Positions 38,950-63,471 of a stretch of DNA of 64,000 nucleotides are shown here, in pieces (within the stretch, counting starts at the first letter, position 1; each line of letters starts with the position of its first letter). Source of the DNA: an uncultured Gemmatimonadota bacterium (GTDB lineage Bacteria > JAAXHH01); assembly GCA_951812955.1 (NCBI GenBank), contig OX638340.1:1664001-1728000 (forward strand), written 5' to 3'. Below the pieces are notes generated by a model. It was not told where the DNA came from and did not search any database. It saw only the letters and a program-made list of their open reading frames with translations. The position numbers were made by a program, and so were the translations under genes.

Positions 38950-39152
38950 GGGGGATGATAGCAAAGATGACAGTTCATATATTCGAATTTAAGCATAAAC
39001 TGACTAGCATTCTCTACGTTGCAATTCCCAATTCATACACGCAAGCCTTACGCTGACCGGTCGTACATAGCTAGTTTGGAAAGGCACACATCTATCTAAC
39101 ACTTCACGATAGATCCATTTGGCCATTTCTGTAAGAAAACTGCAGTTTCTTT

Positions 39153-40835
39153 TTAGCTATTGGGCATAGATGTAGGATGTATCTGGTCAAGTGAAGTCTT
39201 AAAGTCCTTTATTTCATAAAGTATAAATCGATCCGCATCATTCAATAAACCACGTAAACGATTCCCATAGTCTATATCGAGATGTTTCTGGCCACCGTGT
39301 ATTATTGAGTGTATTAAAAAACTCCTCATGTATCCTTCATCACCACTTTCATTAAGACGACTGACTTCTCTAAGTACAACTTCGAACATTTCAACAATAA
39401 ACCTATACTCAAATCGCTCAGATTCCAAGATTGTGGCGAGACAAGTCCCAAGTGCAACTGCAGAAGACAAAGGGATGTTATCGTTTGGAAGTGACCAAGT
39501 ATTCCAATCAAGAATTACCCCGTTGTTTTGCTTTGGTAGGTTTCTATGGTGTGAGTCATCTGGTAATTCAGAAACTAGATGAATCCAACTACATAAAGTG
39601 CTTAATACCACATAAACCAATCTAGCCGATCGTGTTGGGAATTCGTCTGTAGTATCCACAGATGGATCAGACGAATCATAGGAACCTTCCAAAGCATCGA
39701 TAACAGACGTCATGTAATAAAGCCACATATGCCATGTAACACCCTGATAGGCTGCGGCTTTAACCATAAGGTCGAAAAACACAACTCCGACAAACACACC
39801 ATTCTCCCAACACTCATAATCGAATTCAACCGCAGTACCCTGTAAGTAATCTACAAAATCAGAAGACTTGTTTGGATTCAGTAACTGTAGGATATGCTTC
39901 CCAACCGGTTGCCATACTTCCAGTTGTAGCGCTATGTTTGCATTCGAAAAGAGAAAATACAAGAGACGATTGCTTACAGGAAACTCATAGCCATGTTGGT
40001 AAGAAATGTTCTGGTTGTATTGGATTTCTTGGTATAGAACGCTTCCTGTGTCAGCGATTAACAGGCTTAAGTATTTTTCAGAAAACTGACGACTACCAAA
40101 TATGTCCTGGTAAATCAGCGGAATCGCAAAGTACGGTCTATTTGTTGCGATATAAACCCGAAGTTCTTCGGACTGAAAAAACACGCGCGCGATGTTTTCC
40201 GCAGAATCTTGAGCACTGTACTGACTAGGTACAATAAACGCTAGTTTACCAAGCCATCGTCGCCCCACTTTAAACAAACCACTTCGATGTGTTGCTGCAG
40301 ATTGTGATTCCTGATCCAAAACCGTGTATCTTAATGCCGCAATATCTCCTTGCATGGCCCCCAAATTGTCATGATGTCGTTGTAAAAACAGCTTTCGATG
40401 TGATGCCTTCCCAATTACTGGTAAATAGGGTTCGATGAATTCAAGCAATTCAGAATACCGCTTTTCAAGCGATAACCGATCTACTATTCGAGCGATTCTT
40501 ACTAGCAAAAAGGACGAGAATAGCCTCGGGATGCTCAAGTGTATTACTATAGCAAAGATGATCCAAAACAAGACTACGAAAAAGGCAACACCGGAGGGAG
40601 AAAGTGGGCTGGATTCTTTGAAAACAATCCACGTGCATAAACTACCTAGAACAGCTGGGCAAGGTTGCCCAAAAACTTCGAAAAACTCAAGATAAACTAC
40701 TATGAAAAGCGAAACTAACGCTAGTGGGATCTGAAGGACAATGACCAGCTTAGCACGTAGTTTATCAACATGCGTGGCAAGTGTATATGCAGCTAGTACT
40801 AGAGTTAAGAATGTTAGAAAACCGTCTAGGGTCAT
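39153..40835 (-). CDS. hypothetical protein: N-terminal multi-TM segment plus a ~400-aa soluble domain, in an AT-rich islet
   Basis: Long ORF whose GC (~40%) is far below the contig's. Four to five N-terminal TM helices. No recognisable motifs. Confidence 0.55.
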   Translation of the reverse strand: MTLDGFLTFLTLVLAAYTLATHVDKLRAKLVIVLQIPLALVSLFIVVYLEFFEVFGQPCPAVLGSLCTWIVFKESSPLSPSGVAFFVVLFWIIFAIVIHLSIPRLFSSFLLVRIARIVDRLSLEKRYSELLEFIEPYLPVIGKASHRKLFLQRHHDNLGAMQGDIAALRYTVLDQESQSAATHRSGLFKVGRRWLGKLAFIVPSQYSAQDSAENIARVFFQSEELRVYIATNRPYFAIPLIYQDIFGSRQFSEKYLSLLIADTGSVLYQEIQYNQNISYQHGYEFPVSNRLLYFLFSNANIALQLEVWQPVGKHILQLLNPNKSSDFVDYLQGTAVEFDYECWENGVFVGVVFFDLMVKAAAYQGVTWHMWLYYMTSVIDALEGSYDSSDPSVDTTDEFPTRSARLVYVVLSTLCSWIHLVSELPDDSHHRNLPKQNNGVILDWNTWSLPNDNIPLSSAVALGTCLATILESERFEYRFIVEMFEVVLREVSRLNESGDEGYMRSFLIHSIIHGGQKHLDIDYGNRLRGLLNDADRFILYEIKDFKTSLDQIHPTSMPNS

Positions 40836-40933
40836 TTCAACAATCCTTCTCTTAGTAAATGGGTTTACTTCCAGTCAGGAACTCTAAAGAGCATATAAAA
40901 TAGAGTTTTTAAAAAGATCATATGGTTCTTTTA

Positions 40934-42100
40934 CTACGCTTTCTCCAACGCCTGGTCCAGATCGGCGATGATGTCGTCCGGGTCTTCCAGGCCCACCGAA
41001 ACGCGCGCTCTAAAACCGCCATCCGCGCTCTCGCCCGAGGGCAGGATCAACGTCTCCACATCGCCCAGACTATACCACGGCTTGCACATCTTTAGCCGGC
41101 CTAAAAAGCGGTCGAGCGAGACGCCGGGCTTGGAGACGAACCGCATCATTCCCCCAAAACCGTGCAGGTATCCGGTCGCGACCTCGTGATTCGGGTGTGA
41201 GGTCAGGCCCAGGTAGTCGACACGGGTGATCTTTTTGTGCTGGTCCAGGTACTCCGCCACCTTCTGGCCGCTGCCGCAGTGCCGCTCCATCCTGAAGGCC
41301 AGCGTCTTGAGGCCCCGGTGTACGAGGAAGGCGTTCATGGGCGCCAGCACGCCACCCATGAGGATCCGCATAAAATGTATCTGCTTCCTGATCTCTTCGT
41401 CGCGGCCGGAGACGATCCCGGCAAGGGCGTCACCGTGCCCGGCCATGTACTTCGTCATGGCGTGGAGGACCACGTCGGCGCCGTAGTGCAGAGGCCGCAG
41501 CAGGTAGGGCGATAGAAAGGTGTTGTCGACCACCACCAGGGCTCCAGCTTCATGGGCCATGTCCGTGGCGCGTGCTAGATCGATGAATTCCATGGAGTGG
41601 GCGTACGGTTCGAAATAGACCATCCTGGTCGGCTTTTTAAGCGCGGTTTCGAGTGCGTTCAGTTCGCACAGGTTTACCATCTGGACTTCCACGCCCCACT
41701 TCGTCGGCAGCACGTCCTGGAACAGCATGTGGGTCCCGGCATAAACGGTCTCGTGACAGACCACCCGGTCGCCGCTTTTAAGCAGGCCGAACAAGGTCTG
41801 GCTGACCGCCGACATGCCGCACGAGGTCGCCTGCGCCCACTCCGCGCCTTCGAGGATCCGCACCTGTTCTTCGAGCGCGCCGCTGGTGGGACCGCCCGCC
41901 TTGTCCAATCCCCGGCCGTAGGAGTTCGTCCCCTCGTAACCCTCGCGGTAGTTGGTGTTTCCCTGGTAGATCGGCACCGAAGACGACGTGCCATGGTACC
42001 CGCCGTGGATGGCGTCCGTGGTAAAATCCCGGTTGTCGGCCGACTGGTAGTCATCGGCTGCGAAACGGAGGTCGTTACGGAGGTCGTGGTTGTTGGGCAT
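40934..42100 (-). CDS. Cys/Met-metabolism PLP-dependent enzyme (methionine gamma-lyase / cystathionine gamma-synthase family)
   Basis: PLP-lysine motif AMTKYMAGHGD and the trans-sulfuration fold family. Confidence 0.8.
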   Translation of the reverse strand: MPNNHDLRNDLRFAADDYQSADNRDFTTDAIHGGYHGTSSSVPIYQGNTNYREGYEGTNSYGRGLDKAGGPTSGALEEQVRILEGAEWAQATSCGMSAVSQTLFGLLKSGDRVVCHETVYAGTHMLFQDVLPTKWGVEVQMVNLCELNALETALKKPTRMVYFEPYAHSMEFIDLARATDMAHEAGALVVVDNTFLSPYLLRPLHYGADVVLHAMTKYMAGHGDALAGIVSGRDEEIRKQIHFMRILMGGVLAPMNAFLVHRGLKTLAFRMERHCGSGQKVAEYLDQHKKITRVDYLGLTSHPNHEVATGYLHGFGGMMRFVSKPGVSLDRFLGRLKMCKPWYSLGDVETLILPSGESADGGFRARVSVGLEDPDDIIADLDQALEKA

Positions 42101-42242
42101 AGTAAGAATCCCTCAGTTAAACACTACGGGGCTATGGTGGAGTCTGGACCAATGCAGAACCAGTGGACAAACAGATCGAGAAAGAACCCGGGTTCTTGAC
42201 TGGTTTAAGGTAAATGGGGGTTAAAGGGGGTCAAGCCATATC

Positions 42243-42325
42243 AGTCGTGCTTCGTGGGATGTCGAGATCATGATTCCACGCTATATCATTCAGGTTATTA
42301 CGATTTCATTCGGCATTAACGTTTG
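42243..42325 (+). pseudogene. remnant of a HigB-family toxin C-terminus (…ASWDVEI…) upstream of an orphan HigA
   Basis: A short open frame encodes SRASWDVEI, which resembles the conserved HigB C-terminal (A)WDVEI(x)DYH block. The frame is closed by an upstream TAA, so no full toxin ORF exists. Confidence 0.35.
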
Positions 42326-42347
42326 ACGTTAATAACACGTAACGTTA
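42315..42347. promoter_or_regulatory. palindromic operator-like sites (ATTAACG-N5-CGTTAAT and TAACGTTA) upstream of the HigA-family gene
   Basis: Perfect inverted repeats seen at 42315-42333 and 42340-42347, in an AT-rich stretch ~80-110 nt upstream of the HigA ATG. Confidence 0.4.
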
Positions 42348-42426
42348 TTATTGTATTAGCATGATGATATCGTTCAAAGACCATTTTCGTACAGTCGAAC
42401 TTGTCGATTACCATTAGGAGTCAGAT

Positions 42427-42732
42427 ATGCCTTCCGACTTGATGCACCCAATTCATCCCGGTGAGATCCTCAAGGAAGAGTTTCTGGAACCATTAGGCCT
42501 GAGTCAGTATCGTGTCGCTGTGGACATTTCAGTTCCACCGCGCCGTATAAACGAAATCGTTCACGGCAAACGCTCTATATCCGCTGACACGGCATTACGG
42601 CTGGCACGCTATTTCGGAACTACGGATCGTTTCTGGCTGAACCTACAGACACACTACGACCTGGAGAAGGAAAGAGATCGCTTAGGAAATCGATTGGAGA
42701 CCGAGGTACTTGTACTGGAGCGATCGAACTGA
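42427..42732 (+). CDS. higA: HigA-family antitoxin / XRE-type HTH protein (COG3093-like)
   Basis: Canonical HigA N-terminus HPGEILKEEFLEPLGLSQYRVA...PRRINEIVHGKRSISADTALRLARYFGT...FWLNLQTHYDL. Confidence 0.8.
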   Translation: MPSDLMHPIHPGEILKEEFLEPLGLSQYRVAVDISVPPRRINEIVHGKRSISADTALRLARYFGTTDRFWLNLQTHYDLEKERDRLGNRLETEVLVLERSN

Positions 42733-42746
42733 AGCCGCAAAAGTTT

Positions 42747-43751
42747 ATGTCTCAACACCCGGCATCTCTTACCAAACTACTGCACAAAGCCAGTATTAAG
42801 CGCGGGGGCATTCGATGCGTAGAACCGATCGGCGATGGCGTAACCAACCGGACCCTATTGGTTACTCTGAAGGACGGCAAGCGCTACGTCCTACGCGAAT
42901 ACGATTGGCCTTACCCTTCAAGTGATAATCTCCAAAGACTCGATAAAGAGGTTTATCTACACAATCTGCTTCTAAAATACGATGTACCGGTTCCGTCCAT
43001 CGTTGCCAGTCACGACGATGGAAGTAACTGTGCCGTGCTGATGGAGTATATGCCAGGATTGCTTCTTGGAAATGTTGTAGATACCCTGACTGAAGTACAA
43101 CGGGCTCAAGCCTGGCGGGCTGCCGGAACAGCTTTACGGAATGTTCATTCGATCCGGCTGCTTGATGGCTGTTCGGGCGTGATCGTCGGTGAGCGCGTCC
43201 AGCCTTTTGAAGAAGGATCCTGGGGAGACTTTCATTTCCATCAGGCTATACAGCATGCGAATCACCTACTGAAGCGGGATGTGGGATTGCATTTCGACCT
43301 GCCGTCGATGAAGAACGTATTGAAACAGGCGGTTCCCCTGCTGAACGAATCTCCGGTGGTCCTGCTGCACAACGACCCCCATCCCTGGAATGTGCTTGTT
43401 AACGAGGTAGCCGGCCATTGGACCTGTTCAGCATGGCTTGACTGGGAATACGCCTGGTCAGGAGACCCGGTCTGGGACCTTGTTCGGACCGATCTGTTCC
43501 GGTTGAAACGGATCGGTCCCACGCCGGACGCCTTCTACGAGGGATATGGCGCTTTCCCTCGAGAACCGAATCGAAGTATCTACGAACTTTCCATTAACCT
43601 TTGGATGGCCGACCAGTACCTGGATGGAGAAATAGACGAGGAACGGGTACTCATGCCCACCTACGAGGCGGCGATGCAGTACCTGGGCCGGATCGACGAA
43701 GCGGTGGTAAGGATCGGAAACGAGCTTGAAAGGGCTGACCGGCTGCCTTGA
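42747..43751 (+). CDS. phosphotransferase-family (APH/choline-kinase-like) kinase
   Basis: Brenner motif HNDPHPWNVLV and the D-x-E/D motif LDWEYAWSGDP. Starts 15 nt after the HigA-like gene. Confidence 0.75.
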   Translation: MSQHPASLTKLLHKASIKRGGIRCVEPIGDGVTNRTLLVTLKDGKRYVLREYDWPYPSSDNLQRLDKEVYLHNLLLKYDVPVPSIVASHDDGSNCAVLMEYMPGLLLGNVVDTLTEVQRAQAWRAAGTALRNVHSIRLLDGCSGVIVGERVQPFEEGSWGDFHFHQAIQHANHLLKRDVGLHFDLPSMKNVLKQAVPLLNESPVVLLHNDPHPWNVLVNEVAGHWTCSAWLDWEYAWSGDPVWDLVRTDLFRLKRIGPTPDAFYEGYGAFPREPNRSIYELSINLWMADQYLDGEIDEERVLMPTYEAAMQYLGRIDEAVVRIGNELERADRLP

Positions 43752-43789
43752 AACGGGTGAGGAGTTGGTAGTCTTACTGTAAAAGGAAT

Positions 43790-44227
43790 GTGATCATGGA
43801 TTCGGTTTTCACAAGGATTATCCGAGGGGAGTTGCCCGCTTACTTCGTATGGCGTGATGACCAAGTGGTCGCGTTCCTTTCCAAGTCGCCCTACAGTACT
43901 GGGCATACGCTGGTTGTCCCGCGATTGGAGGTCGATCACTGGATTGATCTTGAACCGGCGCTGCTGCGACGGATCATGACGGTCTCGCAGGAGGTGGGAA
44001 AGGCTATTCAGCAGGCGTTCAACCCGGCCAAAGTGGGCATGCTGATCGGGGGATTGGAAGTCCGCCACGTACATGTGCATCTGTCACCGGTGAATTCCGT
44101 CCACGACTTTGACTATGATCGCCAGCAATTGAGCCCGGTTCCAGAGTCACTCGAGCAGGCCGCTAGAAAGATCCGTGCCGCGCTAGTGGAACTGGGACAT
44201 GCTTCGGTTGTACCAGGAGATGATTGA
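43790..44227 (+). CDS. HIT (histidine triad) family protein
   Basis: HIT motif RHVHVHL and an N-terminal IIRGELPA. Confidence 0.8.
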   Translation: MIMDSVFTRIIRGELPAYFVWRDDQVVAFLSKSPYSTGHTLVVPRLEVDHWIDLEPALLRRIMTVSQEVGKAIQQAFNPAKVGMLIGGLEVRHVHVHLSPVNSVHDFDYDRQQLSPVPESLEQAARKIRAALVELGHASVVPGDD

Positions 44228-44440
44228 TCAGCCCCGATCAGGTTTCCACTCTTCCCTCTCCGCTCCCTAGCCCCGATCCGTGCCGCATTGGCCTATGAGA
44301 CTATCTGAACGGTTTTCCCTCTCGTATTCCTTGACATATACTAAACAAATGATTAGTTTATCTGTAGAATGAGTTCCAGTATGGCGTTCCCATATCTCGT
44401 CCCGCCGACGTCCTGGGCAACCACTACGAGAGGAGATTAA

Positions 44441-45367
44441 ATGTACACCGCGTACACGGGGAGCAGCCACTACTGCTATAGCAACAGTCTTCACATGTGC
44501 CTGAAGCAGGCAGGTATGGTCGATCTCCCGGAGCCCGGCCTGTTGGAATGCATGACAGGCATGCCGTTCGGTACCCTTTTCCTGAAGTTTGAAACGCCTC
44601 TGTTCTTCCCAAGTCACGCCGACCTAAACCCACACAGTGGGCTGTCCCGTGCCCTAAGCATCCTGGGCTGGAACTGTACCTTGTGGCAGGGTGACAATGC
44701 TGAATCTGCCCTCGATGCATTGAAGGAAAACCTGAAGAAGGGTCCCGTGCTGCTTGGTCCCCTGGACCTGGGCTACCTTCCCTATGATCCGAATCACAAG
44801 ATGAAGCGCGGGGGAGACCATTTCATTGTAGTCCTGAAACTCGAAGGCGACCGGGTGCAAGTGCATGACCCGCAGTTCTATCCTTTCGCCGTACTGCCGG
44901 TAGATGACCTCATGCGCGCGTGGAATGCCACTAATCTCGGCTACGCGACTTGCGCATATACCCTGCGCGGCGATTTTCGGGAAGAGCGTCGGGTGTCGAC
45001 CGATGACATGCTGAAGGATATCCTGGAATACGCACGGGAGCTGATACATGCGGCCCCCTCCGGTCCGGTCTTTTTTGGCGGTTCGAAGGCCTTCCGCCTG
45101 GCTGCAGAAGTGATCCGGGGTAAACCGCCGCAAGGTTTCGCTGGCATGCTGGTCCATTTCGTCCTTCCGATAGGCGCCCGACGCACCCTGGATGCGGCTG
45201 ATTTCATGAAGTCGGCGGGCCAGACGGAAGCCGCGGAGTGGATGGTAAAGAAAGCCGAGTCATACGGCCTGGCGCAATATCATGCCACGCAGGAGGACTG
45301 GAAACGCACGGAAGCGCTTTTCGAAGAGTTGGCGGAGATTGAAGACAGCATCGCGGAGTGTGTCTGA
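44441..45367 (+). CDS. BtrH N-terminal domain-like protein (papain-like fold, DUF4872-type C-terminus)
   Basis: N-terminal HYCYSNSLHMCL resembles the BtrH_N Cys-containing block. Length ~308 aa. Confidence 0.5.
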   Translation: MYTAYTGSSHYCYSNSLHMCLKQAGMVDLPEPGLLECMTGMPFGTLFLKFETPLFFPSHADLNPHSGLSRALSILGWNCTLWQGDNAESALDALKENLKKGPVLLGPLDLGYLPYDPNHKMKRGGDHFIVVLKLEGDRVQVHDPQFYPFAVLPVDDLMRAWNATNLGYATCAYTLRGDFREERRVSTDDMLKDILEYARELIHAAPSGPVFFGGSKAFRLAAEVIRGKPPQGFAGMLVHFVLPIGARRTLDAADFMKSAGQTEAAEWMVKKAESYGLAQYHATQEDWKRTEALFEELAEIEDSIAECV

Positions 45368-63123: not shown

Positions 63124-63471
63124 ATGGTTCAACTCTTGGATATCGTCTTCAAATCACAAAAGCTTGCTCAGATATTCAATTCAGAGAACAACCTCAAGAA
63201 GAAGTACGGGACAAAGTGTTCGCGTACCATAATGATAAGAATGTCCGTTTTGAGAAACGCCAGTACTTTGGAAATTGTACCGAAAACCCCGCCTGACCGG
63301 TGCCACCAGTTAAAAGGGCGTCGTAAGGGGCAATTCGCGGTGGAACTGGATGCAACGCGAAGGCTCGTCTTCAAACCGAACCATGAACAGACTCCACTTT
63401 CAAACGATGGCGGTATAGACTTGAATGGCGTGACAGCAATAATGATCCTCGATGTAACGGAATATCATTGA
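63124..63471 (+). CDS. higB: HigB-family toxin (RelE/ParE superfamily, COG3549-type)
   Basis: Conserved block HQLKGRRKGQFAVELDATRRLVFKP…DVTEYH. AT-rich local context. Confidence 0.75.
   Translation: MVQLLDIVFKSQKLAQIFNSENNLKKKYGTKCSRTIMIRMSVLRNASTLEIVPKTPPDRCHQLKGRRKGQFAVELDATRRLVFKPNHEQTPLSNDGGIDLNGVTAIMILDVTEYH

Follow-up and report, generated by a model that had tools for sequence, protein, structure and literature searches.

When toxin-antitoxin (TA) modules decay, the toxin is the part expected to go first. In the closest known systems, HigBA of Pseudomonas aeruginosa (PaHigBA) and GraTA of P. putida, the antitoxins PaHigA and GraA each occupy TTAAC GTTAA palindromes within their own promoter in the form of two dimers that cooperate (PMC6987408). 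HigA proteins are also found alone: in marine metagenome-assembled genomes (MAGs), HigA-1 ranks with the most abundant orphan antitoxins, and such orphans have been proposed to act as transcriptional regulators (PMC12654330). Here we analyzed a 64,000-nt stretch of contig OX638340.1 from an uncultured Gemmatimonadota bacterium (hereafter the window), in which a higA gene with no toxin partner is followed by the gene of an APH-family kinase. We read this locus, with a probability of about three in four, as a chromosomal type II higBA module in vertical decay, of which higA and its promoter remain in front of an unrelated cargo kinase. It is an ordinary stage of TA decay, not a new kinase-based toxin system.

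The features on which this reading is built are, in window coordinates:

42315-42333, no strand: inverted repeat 1, ATTAACG-N5-CGTTAAT with TTTGA between the arms, a putative HigA operator that straddles the −35 hexamer
42323-42351, plus strand: sigma-70-type promoter of the hig operon (−35 TTGACG at 42323-28, 17-nt spacer, −10 TATTAT at 42346-51)
42340-42347, no strand: inverted repeat 2, TAACGTTA, a putative HigA operator that overlaps the upstream edge of the −10 hexamer
42361-42417, plus strand, frame 3: higB deletion scar, an 18-codon open reading frame (ORF), MMISFKDHFRTVELVDYH and a stop codon, identified by tblastn and multiple alignment
42416-42420, plus strand: AGGAG, the ribosome-binding site of higA, called from the sequence and conserved in all loci
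42427-42732, plus strand: higA, encoding a 101-aa HigA-family antitoxin/repressor with an XRE-type helix-turn-helix (HTH) and no toxin partner (TIGR02607)
42747-43751, plus strand: phosphotransferase of the APH/choline-kinase fold, 334 aa (PF01636), with its ATG 15 nt after the higA stop (14-nt gap)

The toxin gene has been reduced to a scar directly in front of higA. The frame 3 translation reads RYYCISMMISFKDHFRTVELVDYH between two stop codons, the second of which lies 9 nt 5′ of the higA ATG. According to the multiple alignment, HigB codons 1-7 are followed in the scar by four junction codons and then by the final seven codons of HigB, so that ∼75 of the 93 codons are deleted. In line with this, tblastn searches with the intact HigB proteins of relatives matched the window at 42361-42381 (MMISFKD) and 42382-42414 (HFRTVELVDYH). 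The intact proteins are 93 aa long and match PF05015 with an E-value of 9e-19; one example runs MIISFKDRETERVF...NGRATEVELVDYH. We rejected the possibility that the scar is itself a conserved functional mini-gene, because its start, frame or stop is lost in four related loci (L012, L014, L023, and L024). Conservation of the scar is limited to its 5′ and 3′ ends, which carry the higA leader and the AGGAG ribosome-binding site; the latter overlaps the scar stop codon and ends 6 nt before the ATG.

That HigA is an orphan whose toxin has been lost had been proposed in a preliminary description of this DNA. The conclusion stands and is now carried by the 18-codon scar at 42361-42417, but the evidence offered for it, a closed upstream fragment read as the HigB C-terminal signature, does not hold:

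42249-42269, plus strand, frame 2: codons for "ASWDVEI", intergenic DNA

These codons exist, but tblastn and HigB-family searches returned nothing above noise for them, they are not conserved in the orthologous locus L002, and they are homologous to intergenic DNA lying 5′ of intact higB genes in L009, L013, L016, and L020. The stretch falls within the least conserved part of the spacer (62%).

Comparison with related genomes places the scar in a series. Scans of genomes and metagenomes with kinase homologues yielded 21 distinct syntenic loci, mostly from sponge-associated Latescibacterota MAGs; the MAGs are labeled Latescibacterota, in some cases Gemmatimonadetes or "bacterium", and contig and sample names suggest a sponge or coral origin for several of them. 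All 21 loci share the order NhaA ... Cys/Met enzyme (minus strand), followed by the kinase and then AhpC (minus strand), and they fall into three states. Five retain both higB and higA intact (L008, L009, L013, L016/17, and L020), with a cognate HigB gene of the PF05015 family directly upstream of higA; in the window only the scar stands at this position. Twelve, including the window, have an intact higA and a damaged higB, in at least four different architectures. In L005, L018, and L024, higB codons 1-28 are joined to the last ∼10 codons, and in L004 codons 1-7 are joined, out of frame, to the last ∼25. Codons 1-7 are joined to the last ∼10 in L006 and L023, and again in the window, L026, and L002, with a junction unlike that of L006 and L023; L012 and L014 are also of this type. 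In L011 (5603-6680) an insert of ∼1 kb replaces higB and the promoter, and only the last few HigB codons (…DYH and the stop) remain before higA. The other four loci (L001, L003, L010, and L015) have lost both genes, leaving the last ∼13-25 nt of higA ahead of the kinase and, in L015, also a VDLVDY relic of HigB. From these three states across 21 syntenic loci it follows that the ancestor of the clade carried higB-higA-kinase and that the module has since been eroding independently in many lineages, toxin first.

The kinase does not share the fate of the TA genes. The four loci that lack HigA all have an intact kinase, whereas frameshifts or internal deletions disrupt it in four loci with a retained HigA (L016/17, L018, L020, and L023); in two of these, L016/17 and L020, the kinase pseudogene stands beside intact HigB and HigA. 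The tight higA-kinase junction is kept in 17 of the 17 higA-bearing loci.

HigA itself is a canonical member of its family, as had been described previously: the protein encoded at 42427-42732 scores 114.8 bits against the TIGR02607 equivalog model (E 1.1e-33, cut-off 47.7) and can be aligned along its whole length both with PaHigA (6JPI, E 4e-20) and with GraA (E 1e-17). All 17 higA copies are open reading frames, and residues 8-79, the HTH core, are near-invariant in the 17 orthologues, with variation limited to residues 3-7 and 80-101. Pairwise ratios of non-synonymous to synonymous substitution rates (dN/dS) are 0.03-0.16 among toxin-less copies and 0.04-0.09 among toxin-bearing copies; for the higA at 42427-42732 the range obtained was 0.04-0.17. 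For L012 and L014, which share a derived scar and a promoter deletion, the counts of changes are 6 (non-synonymous) and 12 (synonymous), a departure from neutrality with p = 3e-4.

The inverted repeats noted in the preliminary description are real and unique: each occurs once in the 64 kb, at 42315-42333 and 42340-47, where shuffled sequences would give 0.08 and 0.18 occurrences. They lie on the best promoter match between 42050 and 44500, TTGACG-17-TATTAT, which agrees with the consensus at 10 of the 12 hexamer positions. The operator/promoter block (42312-42352) reaches 90% conservation in a set of 12 orthologous loci, compared with 62% for the DNA just upstream; repeat 1 is nearly invariant and repeat 2 is also conserved. 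The promoter is conserved in orthologues with intact higB as well, and the −35 hexamer and operator 1 have been lost in L012 and L014. In motif type and in position over the promoter the palindromes resemble known HigA operators, as would be expected for HigA autoregulation.

We propose the following course of events. In the ancestor of the clade, higB-higA would have stood directly 5′ of the APH-family kinase gene, probably together with a gene for a HIT-family hydrolase, in a block between the divergent Cys/Met enzyme gene and the AhpC gene. In the lineage of the window an internal deletion then removed higB, leaving the 18-codon scar and sparing the promoter, both palindromes, the higA ribosome-binding site and higA. 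By homology to PaHigA and GraA, HigA dimers would repress the promoter by binding at both TAACG/CGTTA palindromes, which overlap its −35 and −10 hexamers, and with HigB gone HigA would act as a plain negative autorepressor. Transcription would start near 42358, ∼7 nt 3′ of the −10 hexamer. As the gap to the kinase is only 14 nt and no terminator is predicted between higA and the kinase, transcription most likely carries on past higA, so that the kinase and HIT genes lie on the same transcript and would be expressed at a low, HigA-limited level. Co-transcription of the kinase, suggested earlier from its position, is plausible on these grounds and in view of the junction kept in all higA-bearing loci.

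Several observations weigh against this reading. Co-transcription, repression and the transcription start are all predicted from sequence, and there is no clear ribosome-binding site before the kinase ATG. Every comparison genome is a MAG, in which single frameshifts may be assembly errors, while the kinase deletions in L020 and L023 are too large for such an error. The order and number of the deletions are not fully resolvable, as the junctions evolve neutrally and the locus recombines; L002, for instance, carries a scar and its close relative L009 an intact higB. Constraint on higA in the window's own lineage is weak and not demonstrated, because comparison with L026, which has the same scar, gives 7 non-synonymous and 6 synonymous changes (dN/dS 0.37, p = 0.07). 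Finally, the subfamily and substrate of the kinase do not appear to be assignable from curated models.

The kinase belongs to the APH family, as had been recognized, with a PF01636 match of E 1e-27 (97.9 bits, gathering score 23.2). The HxDxxxxN catalytic loop (H208-x-D210-x4-N215) and the D-x-E metal site (D232-W-E234) show no variation among 54 homologues. The AlphaFold2 (AF2) model (pLDDT 93.6, pTM 0.91) shows a bilobal kinase-like fold, and its best Foldseek matches in the PDB are APH(2''), YihE/RdoA, fructosamine-3-kinase, and Mph (E 1e-10 to 1e-8), together with capreomycin phosphotransferase (probability 1.0, TM-score ∼0.5-0.6, identity 14-19%). A family profile searched against the PDB placed the ACAD11 kinase domain first (3.8e-6) and all others lower, and a single-sequence search of the PDB was marginal. 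Based on the intact invariant catalytic motifs, the kinase is probably active. None of the curated subfamily cut-offs was reached (thiK 23.9 against 299, APH_3p 16.1 against 205, Choline_kinase 21.4 against 29), and the homoserine kinase II and MtnK models gave no match. Of the assignments considered at the outset, APH family membership holds, and homoserine kinase II, choline kinase at its cut-off and HipA do not. A metabolic link to the neighboring Cys/Met enzyme, with the kinase acting as homoserine kinase II or methylthioribose kinase, found no support: no curated model matched, and tblastn screens and gene tables showed no Cys/Met enzyme gene beside distant kinase homologues.

The kinase family comprises ∼47 close members (≥62% identity), all placed loci of which lie in this clade, and more distant homologues, some of them annotated as Chloroflexi or Actinobacteria. 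Two of the distant homologues, at 42-45% identity, stand in informative neighborhoods: in L053 (4520-5999) the gene follows a MarR gene by 10 nt among MMPL and ABC (efflux) transporters, and in L051 (3973-7315) it is clustered with a second APH gene, an SDR gene, a beta-lactamase, an XRE regulator, an aminoglycoside nucleotidyltransferase, and several GNATs. Because of these gene contexts, members of the family may modify antibiotics or xenobiotics.

Within the clade the kinase varies more than its surroundings. Among the window, L026, and L001, synonymous divergence (dS) is 0.1-0.27 in flanking genes and 0.33-0.68 in the kinase, and kinase dN/dS is 0.2-0.3 compared with ∼0.1 in most flanking-gene comparisons. 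The termini of the kinase are its most variable parts, and where higA ends and the kinase begins (around 42650-43000) identity between the window and L026 drops from ∼96% to ∼61%. The excess of kinase dS over that of the flanks and this sharp break suggest allele swapping by recombination, or diversifying pressure on the kinase N-terminus. Kinase alleles of the window, L026, L001, and L024 share 72-84% amino-acid identity.

Why HigA persists in the window, whether for regulation of the cargo, for protection against a related HigB, or merely through incomplete decay, bears on the alternatives to the decay reading. HigA may have been kept as a dedicated transcriptional regulator of a kinase/HIT cassette, as MarR and XRE regulators are for kinase homologues. 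This is possible and would account for several observations, namely the tight junction in 17 of 17 higA loci, the almost invariant operators, the purifying selection on toxin-less higA, and the regulators that lie 10 nt ahead of or beside distant kinase homologues (L053 and L051); moreover, PaHigA is known to regulate genes beyond its own operon (PMC6987408). We nevertheless regard it as unlikely, given that loci with a dead kinase (L018, L023, L016/17, and L020) show the same degree of conservation in HigA and its operators, that higA is constrained in L012 and L014 even though these lack the −35 hexamer and operator 1, and that four lineages dropped higA and retained the kinase.

If instead higA were under no selection and simply had not yet been hit, its conservation would date from the time when it still had a toxin. 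The complete loss of higA in four lineages agrees with this, as does the ratio of changes between the window and L026, and the pair L002 and L009 fits deletions that are recent and recurrent. Against it, 12 of 12 toxin-less copies are full length with an invariant HTH core while the neighboring kinase is disrupted in four lineages; L012 and L014 show twice as many synonymous as non-synonymous changes since their common derived deletion; and the operators are conserved far above the surrounding DNA. On balance we find pure neutral decay of higA improbable. About as doubtful is a more elaborate scheme in which higB-higA-kinase-HIT was a four-gene "addictive cargo" cassette, whose repeated toxin loss allowed HigA to be exapted, in Latescibacterota living in sponges, as a gatekeeping repressor of a rapidly diversifying kinase that detoxifies small molecules and has its alleles swapped between strains.

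An orphan HigA could also be kept to neutralize related HigB toxins, whether these come from another locus of the genome or from mobile elements that enter it. The same higBA family does occur at unrelated loci of related genomes, with HigA paralogues 81-84% identical and HigB proteins ∼60% identical to those of the clade, and without the kinase; moreover, neither damage to its promoter nor a dead kinase has freed HigA from constraint. The window itself contains a second higB-like gene, a more distant one, yet its product shares only 27-30% identity with the lost toxin and is paired with an HTH partner of its own. The termini of HigA (residues 3-7 and 80-101) are its most variable parts, which is odd for a conserved neutralizing interface, and we consider this explanation more doubtful still.

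The second higB-like gene (63124-63471, plus strand) appears intact, encodes 115 aa ending in ...VTEYH, and matches the HigB of the clade with E ∼6e-9. It is followed from ∼63480 by an HTH ORF on the plus strand (…MTHAEFARRCDRSPKLISEIIAGK…) that runs past the window end beyond 64000, and the two are probably another higBA-type module. The paralogous higBA modules in other genomes were found at L056-L060 (e.g., 3210-3806 of L058), where the ∼60% identity of HigB refers to the protein of L009. Some of them lie within TA-rich islands that include PemK, PIN/Phd, and a group II intron, and their operator design is similar (ATAACGGTTGACGTTAAT…GCGTTATTGT). Several intact higB genes at these loci had been overlooked by gene callers, and the higB of L057 is 5′-truncated.

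The preliminary description had compared the order of HTH and kinase genes with HipB-HipA and left room for the kinase as a toxin-like partner. The comparison does not survive inspection: at E ≤10, Pfam returned only APH, a sub-threshold Choline_kinase match and DUF1679 for the kinase, and neither HipA_N nor HipA_C; no HipA structure is found among the 50 listed Foldseek PDB matches; and HigA reaches just 17 bits with the HipB-type model couple_hipB, below its cut-off of 71.65. By the Pfam result and the listed Foldseek matches, a HipA-like kinase is ruled out. No HigA or HigB neighbors were seen around ∼25 more distant kinase homologues with flanking DNA, and conservation of the pair is confined to a single locus passed on vertically. 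PADLOC gave no match for HigA, the kinase, a BtrH-like protein, a 139-aa protein or a 560-aa protein, and a weak generic match for the HIT gene. A kinase neutralized by the HTH protein, whether HipBA-like, a new kinase TA system or the third component of a tripartite HigB-HigA-kinase system, would fit the HTH-then-kinase order, the very short gaps of the ancestral three-gene arrangement and the structural neighbor YihE/RdoA (a homologue of which bears the database label "MazF antagonist"), but is highly improbable in view of the missing HipA domains and folds, the intact kinases without HigA in L001, L003, L010, and L015, the kinase pseudogenes beside intact higBA in L016/17 and L020, the lack of pairing around distant kinase homologues and HigA paralogues, and the absence of a PADLOC match. 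Because the kinase is found intact without HigA and dead with it, gives no HipA signal and is not paired with HigA in distant genomes, it is independent of the TA module and appears to be accessory cargo, a catalytically competent small-molecule phosphotransferase and not a toxin partner.

The decaying module lies in a block that varies between near-identical genomes, flanked on one side by a divergent gene and on the other by a run of plus-strand genes:

40934-42100, minus strand: Cys/Met-metabolism enzyme dependent on pyridoxal phosphate (PLP) (PF01053, E 3e-98), divergent from the hig operon
42104-44301, no strand: variable block with the higB scar, higA, the kinase, and the HIT gene, delimited by blastn against L001 and by the GC profile
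43796-44227, plus strand: HIT-family hydrolase with the motif HVHVHL (PF01230, E 1.1e-18, 68.1 bits against 21.5)
44441-45367, plus strand: BtrH_N / YobF_C-type protein, a conserved neighbor 3′ of the variable block

In the near-identical genome L001, 1.2 kb stands in place of the variable block. Blastn aligns L001 with the window at 94-96% identity up to 42103 and from 44302 onward, and the kinase (82% identity) is the sole part that aligns in between. GC content falls from ∼60-65% in the flanks to 42% in the hig leader and 50-56% in the kinase and HIT genes. The HIT gene lies 44 nt after the kinase. Its presence in the block varies: BLAST matched it in 5 of the 21 loci, and one further locus has a short fragment of it. 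The BtrH_N / YobF_C-type protein is related to the butirosin acyltransferase family, and in relatives that lack the HIT gene its gene comes straight after the kinase.

On the far side of the Cys/Met PLP gene, an island of ∼2 kb with 37-43% GC (38952-40934) contains an ORF of 560 aa (39153-40835, minus strand) whose product gave no match in Pfam or PADLOC. Compared with L001 and L026, both near-identical genomes, the island is inserted DNA, and at the same position L009 has a 149-aa fragment of a homologue of the 560-aa protein (52% identity). Between the PLP gene and the hig promoter lies a 76-nt intergenic element (42171-42246; …GATCGAGAAAG..CCCGG.TTCTTGACTGGTTTAAGGTAAATGGGGGTTAAAGGGGGTCAAG.CATATCAG) that is 86% conserved across 12 loci and leaves relics still recognizable in loci that have lost higBA; it may be the promoter/leader of the divergent PLP gene (TTGACC-16-TACCTT, minus strand). 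An Rfam search of 41900-42800 at E ≤1 gave no match to a structured RNA or riboswitch, and neither the minus-strand leader (42101-42250, z 0.21) nor the scar-higA leader (z 0.67) folds better than shuffled sequences.

Orphan HigA proteins are already common in marine MAGs, and as one more of them the locus adds little that is new. Its modest value lies in the decay series, in which a single syntenic locus across 21 genomes passes from an intact module through at least four toxin deletions to complete loss with a scar. All along the series, conservation holds for the antitoxin, its operators and its tight junction with the next gene, which makes it a clean natural data set on the question of whether antitoxins survive their toxins, and for what reason. 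If HigA has indeed been exapted by the cassette, the same loci would form a natural series of an antitoxin turning into an ordinary cargo regulator. The locus also cautions against annotating neighboring XRE and kinase genes as HipBA-like, and the kinase family, hypervariable between near-identical strains, offers a small clue to how sponge symbionts might resist natural products or xenobiotics.

Set beside other systems in which an HTH gene precedes a kinase-fold gene, the locus resembles HipBA in this gene order only. Its kinase is a PF01636 APH protein and not a HipA_N/HipA_C protein, its HTH protein is HigA and not of the HipB type, and the two form no obligate pair, since kinases without the HTH gene and HTH genes without a live kinase both occur. 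With the APH-fold enzymes APH(2'')/APH(3'), Mph, capreomycin phosphotransferase, YihE/RdoA, fructosamine-3-kinase, and the ACAD10/11 domain, the kinase shares the bilobal fold and the HxDxxxxN and D-x-E motifs; it stands apart from these antibiotic and small-molecule kinases at 14-19% identity and with scores far below every curated cut-off.

The closest likeness is to PaHigBA (6JPI/6LB3) and GraTA (6F8S/6F8H). The antitoxin is of the same family and aligns over its full length, relatives of the window have a PF05015 HigB gene first in the operon, TAAC/GTTA-type palindromes overlap the promoter as in PaHigBA, and Arg49 is conserved. In contrast to both systems, the toxin of the window is deleted down to the 18-codon scar, identity is only ∼45% (tblastn), and the operon is extended by a kinase and a HIT gene. 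The base-reading residues Thr40 and Asp43 of PaHigA are Arg40 and Glu43 in the window HigA, and two separate palindromes take the place of PaHigA's single central site and pair of half sites. Like the orphan HigA proteins of marine MAGs, the window HigA is solitary, with no adjacent toxin. Unlike the orphans surveyed there, it retains a visible toxin scar and has intact orthologous modules at the same locus, and for this reason its orphan status is secondary.

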